Of a stretch of DNA of 64,000 bases, positions 4,534 to 56,652 are shown in pieces (the stretch's first letter is position 1; the number at the start of each line of letters is the position of its first letter). Position numbers and translations under genes: made by a program. This stretch comes from Cetorhinus maximus (lineage: Eukaryota), in contig NC_135895.1 in assembly GCF_964194155.1 (NCBI RefSeq), forward strand, positions 43,400,001-43,464,000. Direction: 5' to 3'. The notes under the pieces were generated by a model. It did no database searches. It saw nothing but the letters and a program-made list of their open reading frames with translations, and was not told the origin of the DNA.

Positions 4534-4818
4534 CTAGGGCACGATATTCCTGCAGTAAACACAGTCAACATCAAGGTGCAGGCATACTGAGGTGGGCTTT
4601 GACTTTGGGACAGGACAATCACTGTGGTCAGAAGGTCATGCACTGCACAGAGGAGGGGCCCTGGACTGTGACTCGTGACTTCATTTTGTGCAGGGACCAA
4701 AGGTTTCACTTCTGAATGACATGAACACATCTCATCATAACAATGAGACATGATTGAATGTATTTACATGGGTGAACATTATATGTCAGTGATTAACACC
4801 CATGCCCACATTGTGCAA

Positions 4819-6518
4819 CTACATCTGCTTGACTTTCCTAACCTTGCTACTACGTCTTGGTGCATCACTGACATCCACAGCGGGGGTGGAGGCGGCCTTC
4901 TGACTGCTATGCCCTGTTCTCTGTGATGATCTTGGTGGGTGTCCTCTGGAGGGCTGAGACCTGGAGGGCCCCAGCCTGCTTTCGGGGTCCTGCTGTGTGG
5001 CAGTGCCACCCTCCTCGGTCTGCGGAGCTGGAGCTGCAGGGGTCACAGAAAGAGGGGATTCGAATGGGCCAGTCACTCCCAGAGTCACCTCGGTGGGTGG
5101 CCCCGGAGTGTGCACCTGCTGATCCTCCTCCCTATGGGTCCCAAGGGCCCCTGGCTGACTCCTTGAGAGGAAGGGGTAGCTGGAGTGAGCTCGAGATGCC
5201 TCGACCCCCCCCAACCCCTCACATTGACACTGATGGATGCCAGCAAGTTCCTCAGCGATGGAGTGCATCTCCTGCAGCAGTGCAGTGCAGCATTGATGTC
5301 CTGCGCCAAGGTCTCCATGGTGGCCACCACCCTATCAATGTTGACCTCGGCGTGTTGGCATGCCAGCGCTATCGCTTTGGTCTGAAGGATGGCAGATTCT
5401 TCCATCGTGCCTTGCAATCTAAGGACATCCCTTCCCAATGTTCCCGAGCTTGTCTTTGTAGCTCCAGCACCTGAGGTAGAACTGAGTCCAGATTCCTGGC
5501 CTCCAGCTGTCCTCCTAGTGCTGGCACCCTGGGATGTCCCTGCCTCCGCCTGCTGTGGATCAGACCGTGTGCTGTCGCTCACCAGATTGTGACCCTGAGG
5601 CTACTCGAGAGCCAGGTCCTGCTGAGGTGTGTGTGTCTGCACTGTTGAAGGGTGTGGGTGAGAGCTGTGACAGGCCTTCAATTAGGGTGTCATCAGATTC
5701 CTCTTCCGAGGTGTCTTTGGGGTTTGAGTGGAGGGCTGAGTCATGCACGCTCCCGGATGCTTCCCAGGTGTGCCTGCATAAGTAAAGAAAGATCATTAGT
5801 GCATGACAGGGGACTGTGGAACAGGAGATATCACTCACAGCATGGTTGTCTGATGGATGTTGTAGTGCAGGATCCTCACTTGGTTGAGCACCGCAAACCT
5901 CACCGTCAGCACAGGAACAGTCCAGATCCTCGCCAGCCAGGTGGATGGCTCTGTTCTCAAAGACAGTCAGGACCTTCAGTTGAGGCATTCCATCCCCAGT
6001 CTGGGACCTCCTTTTTGTTATGAGCCAGTTTGTCCTGCATGAAGATAGATGGAGAGAGTGTAAGGAGGATTCCTGCCAGGCTAGATGAGAAGGATGTCTG
6101 GCATGTGTGGGTGGTGAGTGGTGCCATGGATGGGATGAGGACACGATCTGCAGAAGAGATGACGGTGTTTGTGAGTGAGTGAGTGAGTGGTGATGATCCT
6201 TGACCTGGCAGAGATTCCTGTGAATGTGTGATGGGTTTGTGAGTTGAGAGTGATGAGAAGGGTGACTTATCATGGCAGAACGGAGGAGATCATTCATCCT
6301 CTTTCTGCACTGGGTGGCTGTCCTCTTCTGTAGGACGTTGGCACTCACCACCGCTGCCACTGCCTCCCATGCTGGATTTGTCACCTTGGATGAAGGTTCT
6401 TTGCTCAGAGCAAGGTGGGGTAGAGGATTTTGCGGCAGGCCTCCACTGCAACCAGTAGGTGCTCAAGAGAGGCGTCACTGAATTTCGGGGCAGCATGTTT
6501 CCTCCCTTTGGATGCCAT
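4819..6518 (-). pseudogene. Decayed intron-containing Myb/SANT-like DNA-binding protein gene (Harbinger ORF, NAIF1/MSANTD-like)
   Basis: ATG at 6518 gives MASKGRKHAAPKFSDASLEHLLVAVEACRKILYP, then a frameshift, then TNPAWEAVAAVVSANVLQKRTATQCRKRMNDLLRSA. First donor is mutated (ATAAGT, 6270). Next exon from 6034 reads DKLAHNKK..SQTGDGMPQLKVLTVFENRA. A further acceptor lies at 5775/5774. Confidence 0.75.
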
Positions 6519-31637: not shown

Positions 31638-31756
31638 TACAGTAAGTCCTTACTTTAAGTTGGCCCGCTTTAAGTCATTTGGATTATAAATATTTAAGAG
31701 CCGGTATTCCCGATTTAAGTGTCAGGAAACAAAAGGGGTTGGGGGTGGGGAAGAGG

Positions 31757-31980
31757 TCAGGAAGGCCCATGAAGCGGGAGGCAGCGACATGGCCCGCAGA
31801 GCAGCTGGCAGGAGGCCGTGAGAACGGCCCAATAGAGCTGGCAGGAGCTGCGAGGATGGCCCACAGAGCAGGCAGGAGGCTGCGAGGATGGCCCACAGAG
31901 CGGACAGGAAGCTGTGAGGATGGCCCACAGAGCGGACAGGAAGCTGTGAGGATGGCCCACAGAGCAGGCAGGAGGCAGAG
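31757..31980. repeat. 32-bp minisatellite, ~7 units
   Basis: GGATGGCCCACAGAGCRGRCAGGARGCTGYGA at 31854, 31886, 31918 and 31950, with degenerate units upstream. Confidence 0.85.
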
Positions 31981-33292
31981 AGATGTGGAGATCAGGAAGG
32001 TCATGTCCACTACTCCCTGATTGGCCAGCTTTAATTGGAATTGATTGCTGATTGACTAGGGTGATTGTCAATCAGTAATGAGTACCACCCCCCTACCCCG
32101 CCCCCTCCACTTCTGCATGCAGGGTGGAGATCATCTGGAAGCCAGAAAAATCATCTTTTTGAATTTACACTGATTGAGAGGGATTGGGGCAAGAGAAATA
32201 TAGAGAGTCAAGAAGAAAAGAATTAAGAATTTTAAAGTCTACTGGAGATATTTCTGAGCCTATGGAGTTGTTTTAACATCGCTCCTTTAACGGACTCACG
32301 TATCAGTTTTGCTCTATTTTTTGCTTGACACCCCTTCTTTCACAGCAAGATGTACTATCGCTCTATATTTTTTCGCTGAATTCTTCAATACCTAACAAAC
32401 TAGAATATAACACCTCTTTGTTACAGGAGAAACATCTATCACCAGCCAAAGGTGTACCTGATCCGCTGGATCCCAGGGACGGAGATCCAGACGAGGAATT
32501 CTACAAGGCTCAAATCTTCATGTTGTCAGGTAGAATTAGCTTTTCATTAAGGGCCAAGATTGTGATCAATTGTCTTTTTGAAACCAAGTTTGTTATTTGC
32601 CAGATAATGTAAGATATGCCCTGAATGACTAGACAGGTAAATCTAAAACGCGTGGTGCGCAACGTTGTAAAATGTAGCATTGTTCTTTCTCCATAGAGTT
32701 CCATAAAGAGATCAGGTGTAAGGTGCAGAGTAGCTCGAGGCTCATGGTGCCCAATATTGTGGACACCACTGTCGTTGACAGCAGTAGCAAAGATACACTC
32801 CTGGCAACCCTGGCAAGCACCAAGAGGGCACTCAAGGATGCGCGGGCAGACAGGGTAATTCTCGTTGATTTCCATTGTAGATAGCTTAAGATCTCAAATC
32901 AATGCTAGATGATTGCGATTTCAAATTTTCTAATATCTCCTCTCTGGCAGAAAGCGAAGTTTGTCCAAATAAGGGAGGCCCAAGAGAAACAGCTCAATCT
33001 GATAAAGGGAGAGAGAATCGCTGCAATGGGACATTTGTATAAGGATAATAAATCCAAGAAGAAGCAGCTGGAGGTGAAAACTTCCCAGAGCAGACTGTGC
33101 CTGGCCCATTAGCCTGCGCCTTCCCAGTCCCAAGAGGTGAAAATACCCAGGAGGCTCAAAGAAGAGAGAGCAGCCTTCCAGCAGAAGGTGGAGAATCTGG
33201 ACTGAAAGGTGGAGAATATGGAGGCTATGAACCTCAAGTTACAGGAGGAAATTGTTGAATTGTCAAAAATAGGTGAGATACTTTCAATTTAA

Positions 33293-34403
33293 TGTTACCA
33301 GGGTGAGAAGTTTCCACCAAATGGCAGATTTCCGATATTGGACTTTTGGAAATCCGCCATTGGCATCTTCCTTTCCAACCTCCGGACCCAAAAGACCAAC
33401 ATATAAAGAAAATCAGAACTGTCAGTTTGACTGACAGTTGCTGCAAGTAGGAACTGCTGCTACTGACCTTCAGGAACTTCCTGGTTTTTCAGCAGGCTTT
33501 TAAAAAAACTCGGAACTGCCAGCCAACCATAAAGCTGCCCAAGCATCTTTCCCGCTCTCAGCAACTGTTTTTTTTAAACCATTAACTGTCAGTTAAACTG
33601 ACAGTTGCTGAGAGTGGGAACTGACAGTAGAGCAGTGATTTCCTTTCTTCTGATCTTGCTGTTCCTCCAGAAACAGAATCTGTGATTGGAGGAGCAGCAA
33701 GGGCAGGAAAGAGGGAACCTGTGATTGGAGAACTTGAAGCCGTTACTCTGACCAGTCCCACTGGCCACTGTGCAGGATACTTTCAGCTGCACTAAATGAT
33801 TTGTGATAACATCTTCTGTGAGGCCAAGGAGAAGAAGTAGAAAATTAAAGAACAGAAGGGAGTCCCTGGTGGTAACAAGGCCAGAGCATGCCCAGAAAAG
33901 CTATAACTAAGGCATACGTCAGACTGGATCCAGCTGTCATCTGCATCCACGACACGAACCACTTCCAGAGAACTGGAAGAGACTAATTTGGTCCTCTTCG
34001 CTTCTAATGATACTGAGTTATCTTGAGCGAGGTGAGTGCTCTATCAGTGTGTGGGGCAATCACAGCTCCTTACAGGGTCGGCCATGCAGATTCCGGAGTT
34101 GGAGCTGCGATTAGTGATGTGAGGGAGGAAGGGAGAAGGATTTGTTCCCAACTCTGCTCCATAAACAACTCTGTCTTTGAATAAAGTAAGAAGCAACTAA
34201 TAATCTAAATACTTTTCCCAAGTAAGCTAAGGTAGGGCCCCATCTGATTGCCTTCCCAAAGCACATCCTGCTTTCATTTTACCATGGAACTGATTGCTTG
34301 TGGCTGTAGAGTAGACAACGGCCACGATAATAACTGTGAGGTGGGGAGCGAGATTTAGTGTCTAAGAAGTATGGGTTTCCTGGAGCTTCTACAGAATTTA
34401 ACA
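33293..34403 (+). mobile_element. LTR-like element inside an intron of the BEN pseudogene
   Basis: TGTTA...TAACA ends, twin ctgtgattggag (CCAAT) boxes and AATAAA at ~34180. No TSD found, so boundaries are uncertain. Confidence 0.4.
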
Positions 34404-35044
34404 GCAGAGCCTGATTTAAATGTTTTTATCGGTTTCCTGGCTGCAGCCAGTTAGATTGAATGGCTGGCTGTCTGACAGGCAGGTAGGCAGCTGGGGAACA
34501 GGGTGGAGGTGAGCTAAACATCAGTGGAAGGGGTGTGGGAATTGGACATTTGAAACCTGGGGTGAGTTGGACATCAGATATTAAGGAGTGGGGGATGTAA
34601 GAAATTGGGAGGTAGGGGATTTGGACAACAGACATTGGGAGGGAGAAGGGGCACAGTCGACTTGGACTTCAGATGTTGGTGATAGGCAGGTTAGACATTA
34701 GACACGGGGTGGGAGTGCTACACGACCGATTCGTGCAAAATTAGGTTGAGGACAGCATATACTTGACTGTGTTGGCCCTTGTGACTAAGTAACCAGCTGC
34801 CACTTGTTGTCTAAGCTTACGTGTAAAGAATGTCCATTTGGACCAAAAACTAGAGGGTTGCTGGTGGCATGGAACAATGCCACACATGAGTCAGTGTCTT
34901 TAGAAGAAAATTAAAGGAGGTTTCATAATGGTAGAAACACTCAGCGCAATAGTTTATTTTTATTTTTCAAAATCTGAATATAATTTCAAGCAAATTTTTT
35001 TATTTTGAAGTTTACCTCTTGTTTTAACACTTTAACAGTCCCTA

Positions 35045-36093
35045 TGTTACATAAGATGTAAATAGTAAAATATGGTAGGCCGAACTTGTAAGCCACTTAA
35101 AGTTGTGTCAAATTTCATTGTCACAAACTCATCACATTATGGTTATCAGTAGCTTTAATGTAACTTTTTCTGGACAATTAAAATGATGCTTGCTTTTAAA
35201 TATTTTCTTAAATGTTTGGGATGAGGGGCATGTGTGAGTGTGTGGTGGAGGGGTGGAGAGGGGCTGATTACAATGTGTGTTTGGAGGGTTGGAGAGGAGA
35301 GTGGCTTCAGTGAGTTGTCTGGCACCAGGGAATATGGAGAGCTTGACTGAAAAAAGAATCTAGGTTTGAAATGCGAAATACTTAAACTTGGCTGAAGTTT
35401 TAGAATGTGAGGTGTAAGGAAAATTTGCATTTTTAGATAAATTAGGTTAGTTTGAATTTCAAAGAGATGATAAGATGTTACACCCAGCCAGAAGAAGCTA
35501 CGCCAAACAGTGTGTTTATTTTTCCCAAAGGTTACTGATAAAATTAGTACTATGAAAGATTTATATTATGAGAAAAGTAAAGTTGCAAAAACATATGGGA
35601 ACAATGGAATTTACACTAAAAGGGGGAAACATGTATAAAGGAGATGAGGCTATGTGTCAGAGGAGAGAAGGAATTCTGAGATCTAACAAGTGTGAAAGGC
35701 CTCCAGTCTCTGTGTATCAAGTTGCTGTCCACAGGAACTGAAGCTGAGAAAACTCACTTTAAATTCTCCTATCCAGGGTATTCTGTTGCTTTGCCTGGGT
35801 CTATTTAAATCTATTTGTTTTTACTGTTGCCTTAATGGAGGTGTAACTGGGAGTCAGATTAATTAGCGGTTTTAGGAGTTATTATAGTAGTAATTTGTAG
35901 ACCTATGTATGTGCTTGAAATCTTTTCTTTTGTTAATTAATGTTTAATTTCATTTTCTAAAAACCTCTGAAGCCGTGGTAGTCTTATTACTTCTGAATTC
36001 AGGGCACGAAATAAAATACAAATTACAAAACAGTTGTGACCGCATGATCAAGTTTCCCTCGAGGATTTGATCATCATCTGCCATGTCATAGCA
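35045..36093 (+). mobile_element. Solo-LTR-like element inside an intron of the BEN pseudogene
   Basis: Starts TGTTAC (left boundary uncertain) and ends CCATGTCATAGCA. The 3' part resembles 4021-4533. Confidence 0.5.
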
Positions 36094-37729
36094 TGATAGG
36101 TTAAATTGGAATTGCGCAAATGACCTTCCAACTCTGAAAAATGAATGATTATTTTTCATCATGTTGCAGCAAGAATGTTGGACATGCTTAGGCGAGGTGA
36201 TAGGCCCCCAGCACCACGCAAGCAAAGATGGCTGGACATGCCTGCATCCCCAGCACCACCCAGGCACATTGAGCAAGTTCCTAAATGGAGCACCAAGAAG
36301 CCAGCGAGCAGTTGCACACTGCAATTAATGGCAAGGTAATGATTCTTATAATTAATTGTCAAAACATTTGAAAATCAATTTTGGTTTCAACAAAAAGTGA
36401 TGGATCACTATGATGATAGGTAAAGTATTAAACTTGCCTCCATTACTAAGGATTTGTCATTCAGTGAGACTGAACAATTGAATAACCTCGTGTAGCTTCT
36501 GTAGTTAATCTGAGTCTGTATTATCTTCCAATTTTACAGAGTATGTCCCTGATTTTACTTACAGGTAAAACTGCCAGATGGTATTGTGACACCGGAGAGT
36601 GTGTGGAATAGGGCACATAGCTAAGGATGAATTCATTATTCATCAGGTCCTTGGCTGTTGATATCTGGGGGTCCGACGAACTGAAGGGAAGGTCAGTCTG
36701 TGGAAGACCATGCCCACCGTTTGTGAACATGGGCAGTACTGGGAAGTCTTTGCTCTCACCACAGAAGTTAAATGTATCAAAGCTAATGCCACATAAACCC
36801 TGTATTTTCTTTTTGTGTGATGCAATGTCCCCTTAGTTAACTGAGAAGCACTGAAATAGGATTAATTGGTCTTCTGATTATGGTTAGGTTCCAAGAAATG
36901 CCCAAATGAACTGGGGTTTCCATGGGGATGAACTGCTAAGAAGCAATGGGTAAACAAATGGGGCTGTTAAAGTTGTTTTATTGCAGGCAGCATAGAAGAT
37001 GCAATTTCTCTCAGCAGGCGGTCAGCTTGGAGGCCTCTTGTCACCTGTTTTGTAAGACCCCAACTTTTAATTTCAACCTTAAACTTTTTCTCTTTTTAGC
37101 AGCATGTTTCACCCGCCAACTCCAAACCCAGGGGCTGAGTGAGGAGGCTTTTAAGAAAAAGTTCAGAAAAATGAATAATTACATCACTGAGAAAATTCTG
37201 AACCTCAATTAGAGACAAAAATCCAGTGAACCAACTAACATCTAATGCCTAAGTTCTGTATTTTGATTAACAGCTACAATTTAACATTTCTTCACTCTAT
37301 CTGTGTTTAACTGCTTTGGTTTCTGCAATTTATGTATTTAACTGTTTATTTCCCTCCTTACAGGGAAGTCAAGAGTATAAGCATCTCAGCAAAAATTGGG
37401 AGGCTGAAATCAGACGAACCATCCTGTCTTATTAATGTAAATACTGTTCAAGTTTTGCATTATGATAGCTGTAATTTAACATAATTACACTTTAACTATG
37501 GTTAGGTTTTTTTTGGTTTCTGCGCCATTTATTTGGTTTTTGCTTATGTGTTTTGTGTTTTTCTGCATCACAATAAACTTGCAGCACAGTCCAGTCAATA
37601 GTGTTTTATGCTTCACTGACTCCACAGCACACATTGACACATAGGTCATTTCTTTGACTTATTAGTAGTTCTTATGTGATTGGAATGGGTGAATTAATTT
37701 TTTGGATTTTCCTTTTTGTAATTTTGAAC

Positions 37730-37981
37730 AGTTTAGCTGGTCTCAAATGGAACCAGTTGGGCCAGTAAATTTAACCAGTCTAACCAGTCTCAACTGGAAC
37801 CAGCTCAACTGGCCAACTGAAACAAATTCAGCTCGCCAACTGGGAACAATCCAACAGGCCAACTGGAACAATCTCAGCAGCCCAACTAGGATCAGGTCAA
37901 CTGGGACCAATTCAGCTGGGCTGGCTGTCCCAATTTCGACAACTAGTTTGGATCCATCCTTGTTCAATTCTGCAGCAAGTG
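37730..37981. repeat. Subterminal AACTGG/CCAGT repeat array ending in ...CTGCAGCAAGTG (EnSpm/CACTA-like end)
   Basis: Many closely spaced AACTGG, ACCAGT and CAGCT motifs in both orientations. The terminus reads CACTTGCTGCAG on the minus strand. Confidence 0.55.
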
Positions 37982-38039
37982 AGGCGGAGAGGCAGTTTTA
38001 AAGCTCTAGGAAAGCCATTTGCTTCTCTCAAGTCAACAT

Positions 38040-39539: not shown

Positions 39540-41232
39540 TGGATTACCAAGTACCACCCCCACTCAGCTGATGAATCAGTACTCCTCCATGTTGAACACT
39601 GCTTGGAAGCACTGAGGGTGGCAAGGGCGCAGAATGTACTCTGGGACTTCAATGTCCATCACCAGTAATGGCTTGGTAGCACTACTGCTGGCTGAGTCCT
39701 AAAGGACATAGCTGCTAGACTGGGTCTGCGTGCAGGTGGTGAGGGAACCAACACGAGATAAAAACATACTTGACCTCATCCTTACCAATGTGCCTGGTGC
39801 AGATGCAGCTGTCTATGACAGTAGGAGTGACCACTGCACAGTCCTTGTGGAGACAAAGTCCCATCTTAACATTGAGGATACCCTTCATCATGTTGTGCGG
39901 CACTATCACTGTGCTAAATGGGATAGATTTAGAACAGATCTAGCAGCTCAAGACTGGGCAACCATGAGGCGCTGTGAGCCATCAGCAGCAGCAGAGTTGT
40001 ACTTGAACACAATCTGTAAACTCATGGCCTAGCATATCCCCCACTCTACCATTAACCCTGGTTCAATGAAGAGTGCAGGAAGGTATGCCAGGAGCAGCAC
40101 CAGGCATACCTAAAAATGAGGTGTCAACCTAGTGAAGCTACAACACAGGATTACTTGTGTGCCAAAGCATAAGCAGCAACTGATTGACAGAGCTCAGCAA
40201 TTCCACAACAACAGATCAGATCTAAACTCTGCAGTCCTGCCACACCCAGTCGTGAATGGTGGTGGACAATTAAACAACTCTCTGGAGGAGGAGGCTCTAC
40301 AAATATCCCCATCCTCAATGATGGAGCAGCCCAGCCCATCAGTGCAAAAGATAAGGCTGAAGCATTCGCAACAATCTTCAGCCAGAAGTGCCGAGTGGAT
40401 GATCCATCTCAGCCTCCTCCAGAGGTCTCGAGCATCACAGATGCCAGTCTTCTCCCAATTCGATTCACTCCACATGATATCAAGAAATGGCTGAAGGCAC
40501 TGGATACAGAAAGGCTATGGGCCCTGACAATAGTACTGAAGGTTTGTGCTCCACAACTTGCCATGCCCCTCGCCAAGCTGTTCCGGTTCAGCCACAACAG
40601 ACATCCAGCCGGCAATGTGGAAAGGTCCGCCTGTACACAAAAAGCAGGACAAATCCAACCCCATTAATTACTGCCCCATTAGTCTTTACTCGATCATCAG
40701 TAAAGTGATGGAAGGGATCATCAGCTTTGCTATCAAGCAGCACTTGCTTAGCAATAACCTGCTCACTGATGCTCAGTTTGGGTTCCGCCAGGGTCACTCA
40801 GCTTCTGATCTCATTACAGCCTTGGTTCAAACAAGGGCCAAAGAGCTGAACTCCAGAAGTGAGGTGAGAGTGATTGACCTTGATATTAATGCAGCATTTG
40901 ACCGAGTGTGGCATCAGGGAGCCCTAGCAAAACTGGAGTCAACGGGAATCAGGGGTAAAACTCTCCACTGGTTGGAACCATACTTAGCACAAAGGAAGAT
41001 TGTTGTGGTTGTTGGAAGTCAATCACCTCAGTTTCAGGATATCACTGCAGCAGTTACTCAGCGTAGTATCCTAGGCCCAACCAAATGCAGCAAGACCTGG
41101 ACAATATCCAGGCTTGGGCTGACAAGTGCAAGCAGCCTACTTGATTGGCACCCCATCCACAAACATTCACTCCCTCCACATAGTCAGCACTGTGTATCAT
41201 CTACAAGATGTGCTGCAGGAACTCACCAAGCT
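39540..41232 (+). mobile_element. Decayed LINE ORF2 (endonuclease end to RT)
   Basis: QVVREPTRDKNILDLILTN..SDH; NYCPISLYSIISKVMEG; QFGFRQGHS; AAFDRVWHQG. Confidence 0.85.
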
Positions 41233-41235
41233 AGG

Positions 41236-42800
41236 GCTCCTTGCCGCCTGATAGCACTGTTGATGGGCCCTTCCATCACTTTACTGAAGATCAAGAGTAG
41301 ACTGAAGGGGCGGTAATTGGCCAGGTTGTATTTGTTCTGCTTTTTGTGTGCAGGACATACCTGGGCAATTTTCAACATTGTTGGGTAGATGCCAGTGTTG
41401 TAGCTGTACTGGAACAGCTTAGCTAGGGGCACGGCAAGTTCTGGAGTACAAGTCTTCAGTATTATTGTTGGAATATTTTCAGGGCCCATAGTTTTTGCAG
41501 TATCCAGTGCCTTCAGCTGTTTCTTGATATCACGTAGTGAACCGAATTGGCTGAATACTGGCAACTGTGATGCTGGGGACCTCTAGAAGAGGCCGAGATG
41601 GATCATCCACTCAGCACTTATGCCTCCAGATTGTGCAAATGCTTCAGCCTTATCTTTTGCACTGGATATGCTGCACTCCCTCATCATTGAAGATGGGGAT
41701 ATTTGTGGAGCCACCTTCTTCAGTGAGTTGTTTAATTGCCCACCCCCACTCATGACCGGACGTGGCAGGACAACAGAGCTTAGATCTGATCCGTCGTTTG
41801 TGGAGTTGCTTAGCTCTATCTATCACTTGCTTCTTAAGCAAGTTGTCCTGTTTTGTAGCTTCACCAGGTTGAAACCTTATTTTTCGGTATGCCTGGTGCT
41901 GCTCCTGGCGTGCCCTCCTGCACTCTTTAATGAACCAGGGTTGATCCCCTGTCTTGGTAGCAATGGTAGAGTGGGGGATATGCCAGGCCATGAGGTTATA
42001 GATTGTGGTTGAGTACAATTCTGTTGCAGCTCTTGGCCCACAGCGCCTCATGGTTAGCCAGTCTTGAGTTCCTAGATCTGTTCAAAATCTATCCCACTCA
42101 GCACAGTGATAGTGCCACACAACATGATGGAGGGCAACCTCAATGTGAAGACGGGACTTCGTCTCCACAAGGACTGTGCAGTGGTCACTCCTACCGATAC
42201 TGTCATGCATAGATGCATCTGCGGCAGGCAGTTTGGTGAGGATGATGTCAAATTGGTTTTTCCCTCGTTGGTTCCTTCACCAACTGAAGGTTGCCACAGA
42301 CCCAGTCTAGCAGCTATCTCCTTTAGGACTCGGCCAGCTTGGTCTATACTGGTGCTACCGAGTTACTTTTGGTGATGGACATTGAAGTCCCCCGCCCAGA
42401 GTACATTCTGCGCCCTTGCCAACCTCAGTGCTTCCTCCAAGTGGTGTTCAACATGGAGGAGTACTCAGTCATCAGCTGAGGGGGGATGGTACATGGTAAT
42501 CAGCAGGAGGTTTCCTTACCAATGTTTCACCTGATGCCATGAGACTTCATGTGGTCTGGAATCAATATTGAGGACTCACAGGGCAACTCCCTCCTAATTG
42601 TATACCACTGTACCACCACCTCTGCTGGGTCTGTCCTGCACTGAGATGGTGATGGTGGCGTGTGGGACATTGTAAGGTATCATTCCGTATGACTGTCAGG
42701 CTGTTACTTGACTAGTCTGTGAGGCAGCTCTCCCAACTTTAGCACAAGCCCCCCCAGATGTTAGTAAGGAGGACTTTACAGGGTCGACAGGGCTGAGTTT
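41236..42800 (-). mobile_element. Second copy of the same LINE family, in inverted orientation
   Basis: Minus-strand ORFs KALDTAKTMGPENIP..NYRPFSLLLIFSKVMEG and PWFIKECRRARQEQHQAY are homologous to 39540-40740. Confidence 0.85.
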
Positions 42801-55910: not shown

Positions 55911-55954
55911 TGCAATCCCGGCAAGCACTGCGGCGCCTCAGTTAGTATCCAGTG

Positions 55955-56652
55955 GAGAGCCCCCCGCGGCCGAGCAGGCATCCCGCCACAGCGCCCTCCC
56001 CGCGGCCGGGAAGACATCCCGCCACAGCGCCCCTCGCGGCCGGGCAGACATCGTGCCTATAGCGCCCTCCGCGGCCGGGCAGACAGCCTGCCACAGCGCC
56101 CCTACATGGCCGGGCAGACATCCCGCCTATAGCGCCCTCCATGGCCGGGCAGACATCCCACCCTATAGCGCCCCCACGCGGCCGCGCAGACATCCCGCCA
56201 CAGCACCGCCCTCCCGCCCCGCAATCACGCGCGGCCGGGCAGACATCCCGCTACAGCGCCCAACCGCGGCCGCGCAGACATCCCACCCTATAGCGCCCCC
56301 CCGCGGCCGCGCAGACATCTCGCCACAGCACCGCCCTCCCGCACCCCCCTCACGCGCGGCCGGGCAGACATCCCGCTACAGCGCCCCACCGCGGCCGGGC
56401 AGACATCCCGCCACAGCGCCCCCCACCTCGCGGCCGAGCAGACATCCCGCACAGCGCCCCCCGCGGCCGGGCAGACATCCCGCACAGCGCCCCCCGCGGC
56501 CGGGCAGACATCCTGCCACAGCGCCCCCCGCGGCCGAGAAGACATCCTGCCACAGCGGCCCCCGCGGCCGAGCAGACATCCCGCCACAGCGCCCCCCGCG
56601 GCCGGGCAGACATCTCGCCACAGCGCCCCCCGCGGCCGGGCAGACATCCCGA
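55955..56652. repeat. GC/CpG-rich ~34-bp minisatellite, ~19 units, between PRPF38A and ORC1
   Basis: Unit approximately GCGCCCCCCGCGGCCGGGCAGACATCCCGCCACA. Includes a higher-order ~125-bp duplication (~56150-56272 and ~56275-56395). Confidence 0.92.

Follow-up and report, generated by a model that had tools for sequence, protein, structure and literature searches.

A broken BEND5-like gene in a shark genome is very probably the fossil of an inverted-repeat DNA element that bore a BEN-domain gene

We analysed a 64,000-nucleotide stretch of DNA from Cetorhinus maximus (contig C18:43,400,001-43,464,000, in a genome of 4.0 Gb; hereafter the window), in which a broken copy of a BEND5-like gene sits between the 3' ends of two genes. 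The gene on its left, which we take to be TUT4-like, lies on the plus strand, contains a zinc knuckle and gives its last coding matches at ~21.4 kb of the window; the other, a PRP38-family (PRPF38A-like) gene, runs on the minus strand from 55.9 to 44.7 kb. A BAH-domain exon at 63.4 kb presumably resembles ORC1, and sharks are the source of the closest named proteins. The evidence set out below makes it very probable that the BEND5-like copy is the fossil of a shark element with terminal inverted repeats (TIRs) that bore a BEND5-like gene.

The gene comprises six plus-strand exons between 32427 and 37212 (Table 1; positions given without a contig are those of the window), as an initial annotation of the stretch had proposed. 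Every peptide block quoted in that annotation is present in the translation of the window; as a result of frameshifts, the blocks fall in different frames, and the gene start that had been placed near 32160 gives way to an exon 1 that begins at 32427 with a derived acceptor. The coding capacity of the copy is gone. In particular, the start codon has been lost along with the N-terminal quarter of the first domain, stops occur at 33110, 33203 and 36622, and frameshifts interrupt exon 1, exon 4 and, twice, exon 5, where one accompanies the stop at 36622 and the second lies near 36775. An AATAAA is found at 37572, 3' of exon 6. The putative promoter region in Table 1 owes its assignment to its likeness to the CpG-rich region (observed/expected 0.8-1.2) upstream of an intact member of the same family on contig C40. 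Within the insert that interrupts intron 3, other copies give very high read depth at 33.5-33.8 and 35.3-36.1 kb.

Table 1 Features of the BEND5-like copy and of the element that very probably carried it, in window coordinates.
Feature	Position	Strand	Remarks
Very probable copy of a non-autonomous TIR DNA element, truncated and interrupted	31718..37990	+	~1.3 kb of the left end, including the left TIR, gone
Minisatellite, 32 bp x 6.2 copies	31777..31985		upstream region of the element; weak similarity in several sister copies
Putative promoter, now decayed, and beginning of exon 1	32000..32426	+	two GATTGG boxes (32019, 32182); no start codon left
Exon 1	32427..32529	+	derived acceptor; rest of N-terminal domain; frameshift near 32480; phase-1 donor
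Exon 2	32697..32854	+	open; phase-0 donor
Exon 3	32951..33272	+	coiled coil; stops at 33110 and 33203; phase-1 donor
Later insert in intron 3, 2.8 kb of other repeats	33299..36092		missing from sister copies
Exon 4	36170..36335	+	encodes the linker; frameshifted once; donor of phase 0 if read in the ancestral frame
Exon 5	36565..36782	+	first two thirds of BEN domain; donor dead at 36783
Exon 6	37103..37212	+	last BEN helices; open, terminates at stop codon
Right subterminal array of CAACTGG-type motifs	37740..37960		23-bp tandem unit

Introns 1-4 of the window copy are bounded by GT..AG, and RNA-type contigs from a related organism (organism C; runs guessed to be RNA) skip them at the predicted sites. 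Intron 3 was spliced in 4/4 runs and introns 1, 2 and 4 in 3/4 runs, which come from three studies, the intron-4 joint resting on short sides of 27-44 letters. Intron 5 was kept unspliced in these contigs, as would fit the change of its donor at 36783 from the GT of sister copies to the CT of the window copy. Because the RNA-type contigs are ~97% like the window, and because their differences from it are common to DNA runs of organisms B and C, they derive from the orthologous locus. The spliced contigs also bear 52 and 118 bases 5' of exon 1 (window 32425) that find no placement within 31900-37800 and that may come from a further exon upstream or from transcription running on out of the TUT4-like gene. 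Splicing in three studies, a locus common to three organisms at ~97%, and the ~140 open codons that exons 1-3 hold in one frame would all suit exaptation of the copy, whether as a functional non-coding RNA or as a short protein, between its TUT4-like and PRPF38A-like neighbours. Such a role is nevertheless very improbable: of 25 listed exon differences, a sample, 10 leave the residue unchanged and 15 replace it, which is close to drift; the stop at 33203 is missing from organism C and so differs between two species; the same organism has an extra 1-base loss in exon 5 (at 36667, in 3/4 runs); and intron 5 is retained and no start codon is left.

The copy is one of many. At 72-85% identity, exon 5 DNA recurs in at least 39 other places, spread over 17 contigs (40 of 64 candidates were scored), and the exon 5 peptide matches at least 41 places at E<=0.001 and at least 69 at E<=1, among 92 candidates. 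The sister copies have kept their introns. Comparison of the flanks of 30 of the exon 5 DNA copies, of 40 further places and of 9 distant ones indicated that the copies lie in unrelated flanks, same-strand homology among copies spanning ~4.3-4.6 kb with sharp boundaries. At both ends of sister copies there is an inverted repeat of 21 bp, CCCTCATGGAAAAATCAGTTG; the exact end pattern occurs 7 times, as against 0 times for the reversed control. Most copies of the commonest subfamily, B, are 80-88% like its majority sequence, in which the density of AACTGG is 36-40 per kb at both ends versus 0.3 per kb in the middle; half of exon 5 is already deleted from this subfamily, which shows no transposase frame. 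The window copy belongs to the older subfamily A, with a whole BEN domain.

Homology of the window copy to its sisters extends from 31718-31770 to ~37965, with nothing further left, and its right end aligns with sister ends. The right array has 6 AACTGG in 221 bases, or 27 per kb versus 0.7 per kb window-wide; the right inverted repeat is decayed and not recognisable, and no inverted repeat pair bracketing the window copy was found. An element reaching past 38.0 kb was rejected, the apparent extension being unrelated repeats. The claim that the window holds a decayed copy of a transposon family is thus borne out at the level of the family, by dispersed intron-bearing copies and by the TIRs and subterminal arrays of the sisters, the window copy's own left TIR being gone and its right one decayed. 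PiggyBac and Harbinger elements use TTAA or TWA target sites; identity with either was rejected, TTAA flanking 0/18 well-kept ends and TTA or TAA 1/18.

Individual copies and the subfamily B sequence showed further features. The majority sequence contains, at ~1120-1490 and 1760-2070, a GC-rich hairpin with ~190-base arms and a fixed 3' fragment of a long interspersed nuclear element (LINE), the latter carried along as part of the DNA element. Two copies with an identical score lie 32 kb apart at C26:43.97 and 44.00 Mb (local duplicates), and exon 5 is tandemly repeated at C6:68.26 Mb. The Carcharodon orthologue of a fossil copy at C14:18.80 Mb is annotated as a 218-residue protein, and this copy is an old insertion common to both sharks, possibly expressed.

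The assignment of the gene to the BEN class rests on its intact relatives. The exon-5 fragment of the window copy matches the Pfam BEN profile (PF10523) at E=0.0041 and 17.7 bits, short of the curated cut-off of 23.2, and the other 10 gene fragments in the same Pfam scan gave no BEN match; intact family members score 28.1-28.9 bits. For one intact relative, an Atlas ranking placed BEND5-like clusters on top (0.96), and the predicted structure consists of a small beta domain, a long coiled coil and a BEN domain at a predicted local distance difference test score (pLDDT) of 89-98. A structure search with the modelled BEN domain returned as its top matches the BEN domains of Insensitive (E 2.2e-4) and Bsg25A, with template modelling (TM) scores by target of 0.71-0.80, so the models indicate that a BEN fold is present in the gene family. 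These two Drosophila BEN-solo proteins (PDB 4IX7, 4X0G) are the closest solved folds, at 18-24% identity to the family BEN; theirs, unlike the family's, are single-copy host genes. Genome-wide, the Pfam BEN profile found only exons that we take to be BEND3-like and BEND7-like, missing the element family and BEND5 alike, a PDB sequence search recovered no BEN chain, and a short-fragment protein search gave no match.

A profile search yielded 310 matches at E<=0.001, of which 150 were listed and 20 of those named. Among the matches listed, the best non-shark relatives come from sea cucumbers and crinoids (E 2e-42 to 6e-32), as against 1e-21 for vertebrate BEND5; among the 20 named relatives, BEND5-like proteins come from several loci per species in the fishes Megalobrama and Brachyhypopomus, the tick Ixodes and the sea cucumber Holothuria. 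None of the 17 long or typical matches that were scanned has a fused transposase domain; a CENP-B N-terminal domain is present in one of them and a gag domain in another. BEN genes are present in poxviruses and bracoviruses (PMC5704228), and they have passed from bracoviruses to moth genomes, which raises the possibility that an endogenous DNA virus left the copies behind as relics of its BEN gene. That origin is hard to credit for units of 4.3-4.6 kb with short inverted ends, no adjoining viral gene and five spliceosomal introns in common with BEND5, and viral contigs contained no relative of the BEND5-like gene. Nor was a relative present in metagenome contigs.

The host BEND5 lies elsewhere in the genome. 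A frog BEND5 query detected one strong gene, on contig C4 (52.53-52.58 Mb). This gene shares 94% identity with catshark BEND5, and its best matches are the BEND5 proteins of bony vertebrates. The BEN exon of this gene has 47-53% identity to frog and teleost BEND5, as against 91-95% to that of the catshark. All five coding introns of the window gene agree with those of C4 BEND5 in aligned place and phase (5/5; phases 1,0,1,0,1), and vertebrate BEND5 has the same N-terminal beta-rich domain, coiled coil and single C-terminal BEN domain as the window gene. The window gene differs from vertebrate BEND5 in its low identity (~24-30% overall) and in being multi-copy, inside a TIR element and broken. 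By its N-terminal domain, coiled coil, BEN domain and common introns, it belongs to the BEND5-like class.

In trees of 218 columns, the window copy falls in a shark-element clade (support 100/95 with 39 rows, 9 of 48 having been dropped as redundant or fused; 97/92 with 26 rows, 13 more having been dropped as long or redundant) and the C4 gene in a BEND5 clade (99/94 and 97/89), the deeper order being unresolved. Forcing the element and BEND5 into one clade was rejected by the approximately unbiased (AU) test (p-AU 0.0011), and the multi-locus fish proteins branch with BEND5 (92/92 and 89/92). A common architecture and common introns are what one would expect if the copies had arisen from host BEND5 by simple segmental duplication or as pseudogenes. 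Unless the alignment is seriously in error, there is scarcely any likelihood of this, given the separate clades, echinoderm proteins as the best non-shark relatives among the matches listed, and an inter-copy homology that ends at sharp common boundaries. The initial annotation was therefore right that this multi-copy, broken gene is not the host orthologue. The shark element family stands to BEND5 as a cousin rather than as the lineage that gave rise to it.

Bony vertebrates have BEND5 nested inside AGBL4. Three library proteins are BEND5/AGBL4 fusions, and the annotation of one human probe assigns it to the body of each gene (PMC9618774). In the shark, genome searches, two of them run under a stricter filter, gave no BEND5 on contig C18. 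That contig holds a gene, C18 46.38-47.49 Mb, that we take to be AGBL4-like; of the 458 kb that separate the flanking exons, 362 kb were covered, and the same queries that detected the C4 gene gave no BEND5 there. The neighbours of C4 BEND5 are exons that are presumably RAD21-, UTP23- and EIF3H-like, Pfam being silent on two fragments. Since the location of BEND5 differs between the shark (C4) and bony vertebrates (AGBL4), the BEND5 lineage is likely to have moved or to have been fixed twice. Separately, long single frames at C19:4.85 Mb and C9:62.74 Mb cover several exons' worth of AGBL4-like protein and may be AGBL4-like paralogues with fewer introns or retrocopies.

One copy of the element gene, at C40:13.83-13.84 Mb, is intact: its start codon is present and its exons are open. 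NCBI models named for Cetorhinus agree with it (first 85/85 residues identical, later exons alike), and it has counterparts in Carcharodon (96%) and Mustelus (75%); in the BEN region, 113/115 residues are as in Carcharodon and 103/115 as in Mustelus. The C40 protein models use an earlier exon-1 donor, skipping a motif that is common to the fossil copies and BEND5. Shark models named 'BEN domain-containing protein 5-like' (XP_078390906.1, XP_041036331.1, XP_078063628.1, XP_048398036.1) belong to the same family and are 42% identical to the window copy when that copy is translated across its breaks; in contrast to that copy they are intact or long, are annotated as host genes and bear names without a transposon link. 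No recognisable inverted ends were found at C40. The C40 gene is likely to be a shark-specific gene that represents a second domestication. Its 3' flank holds a 4.1-kb Harbinger element, a separate insertion with its own ends. Harbinger sequence is found downstream of two copies on contig C40 and of one on C18; a link between Harbinger and the family was rejected, because Harbinger has its own ends, lies at varying distances and occurs in both orientations elsewhere.

We consider it likely that the BEN gene was a helper gene of the autonomous parent transposon. Subterminal repeat arrays are a feature of CACTA/EnSpm elements, and TnpA of En/Spm binds such repeats. As in En/Spm (CACTA), the family has short inverted ends, short-motif arrays beneath both ends and a spliced non-transposase gene; unlike in En/Spm, the putative helper is a BEN protein and no transposase was found. 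The element motif, CCAACTGG, is near-palindromic and one base away from CCAATTGG, the site of Insensitive (Insv). Insv homodimers bind CCAATTGG, and BEND5-BEN binds it detectably and seems to prefer another site (PMC4281564). Sites within one base of CCAATTGG number 5 and 3 in the two ends and 3 in the window array, versus 2 in the middle; the counts in both ends and in the window array were each equalled by 0/200 shuffles, whereas the middle is not enriched. CAACTGG-type motif clusters lie 3' of the gene in 5/8 loci of more distant lineages, and C40 has a faint cluster (4 in 150 bases) that is weak, being the best of a few windows. A BEN-like fold is also what Tn3 transposases use to read transposon ends (PMC9579193). 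From the motifs, we predict that the BEN protein of the family binds the element's own subterminal repeats.

The autonomous parent would have been a CACTA-like, cut-and-paste transposon with two genes, the transposase in the now-empty left half and the BEN gene as its helper. A dimeric BEN protein, with its coiled coil and BEN domain, would bind the CCAACTGG arrays and would either join the ends or repress the element, coating the ends as TnpA does for En/Spm. Defective copies would have been mobilised by transposase from elsewhere, one family member would have been domesticated on C40, and BEND5 would have been domesticated earlier, from a sister lineage.

Several observations weigh against a helper role. 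A Transposase_21 profile had 0 matches, although the control was equally silent; DUF4218 had two weak matches, at C35:1,731,907-1,732,176 (E 0.17) and C21:46,476,946-46,477,152 (E 0.41), which are possible remnants of an EnSpm-type transposase; and the left half of the element contains no open frame and no cross-family protein match. The ends of the family are CC..GG (12/13 well-kept left-type ends start CCC, and CAC is found at 1/5 right-type ends), not the CA..TG of most CMCT elements, whose target duplications are 2-5 bp (PMC12730594). A 4-bp target duplication, which would fall inside that range, is perfect in the copy with the two best ends and was the best of 2-8 bp tried in 11 two-ended copies (21/44 bases, 2 perfect), but it is not above chance under the model used, and two flanks were hand-set. 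With no transposase found and CC..GG ends, we label the element CACTA-like in build and not a CACTA member; its superfamily is unproven. Furthermore, 3/8 distant loci have no motif cluster, the likeness of the element motif to the Insv site was spotted post hoc, and subfamily B spread with a deleted BEN exon, which means that the gene is not needed in cis. The initial proposal of a transposon-encoded accessory gene is favoured by the evidence as a whole, and its linked transposase did not come to light.

The failure to find a transposase and the movement of subfamily B with a broken gene are also what would be expected from Pack-type capture, in which non-autonomous TIR elements took up an ordinary host gene (C40 or its ancestor), with introns, as a passenger that never served the transposon. 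The C40 gene is intact and conserved and is without recognisable inverted ends. A tree built from 112 columns for 22 sister copies, projected onto the C40 sequence, leaves C40 unresolved at the base with a branch length of zero, a placement that capture predicts as well. Yet at least four diverged lineages bear the gene with the same end motif; defective copies retain the exon-1 motif and donor that they have in common with BEND5 and that the C40 models skip; two-domain trees put the window copy and a Stegostoma protein outside C40 (98/85, 95/80); and multi-locus relatives occur in unrelated animals. Capture, the main rival of a helper role, is therefore unlikely.

Elsewhere in the window, a minus-strand frame at 4800-6500 is Myb/SANT-like (Myb_DNA-bind_4, E=0.0013) and probably represents the helper of a degenerate Harbinger copy. 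Two LINE fragments in opposite orientation form long inverted repeats at 39540-42500, and a GC-rich minisatellite of 34-35 bp units lies at 55950-56650, in the promoter region common to the PRP38-family and ORC1-like genes. Rfam had no match within 28-45 kb.

The helper genes of another transposon provide a parallel. Myb/SANT helper genes of Harbinger were reportedly domesticated as NAIF1 and the MSANTD genes, so that there, likewise, a transposon's DNA-binding helper gene has repeatedly turned into a vertebrate host gene; the family described here has a different domain and different ends. Literature searched mostly at the level of abstracts, with Repbase entries outside the search, gave no account of a BEN gene acting as helper in a TIR transposon of animals, nor of a transposon origin of BEND5. 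New to this analysis are a vertebrate example, the agreement of the introns with those of BEND5, the different genomic site of BEND5 in the shark and what is likely to be a second domestication.

The evidence tips slightly towards a transposon origin of vertebrate BEND5, which the initial annotation had raised, with the qualification that the shark family is a cousin and not the source. We lean, if only a little, towards the wider proposal that the BEND5-like class as a whole, BEND5 included, consists of domesticated helpers of animal CACTA-like transposons, with the BEN domain reading subterminal arrays, that such helpers were tamed at least twice in jawed vertebrates (as BEND5, and as the C40 gene in sharks), and that dozens of fossil copies still give spliced RNA. 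The window copy itself is a fossil, and its worth lies in the evidence that it holds. Human BEND5 has roles in germ-cell differentiation and cancer (PMC10183524). If the proposal is true, this human transcription factor would join the transposon-derived genes, with a helper gene and not a transposase as its source, a BEN-solo protein would gain a concrete target sequence, the presence of several 'BEND5-like' annotations in many animal genomes would be accounted for, and the shark-specific gene on C40 would be marked as a probable second domestication.

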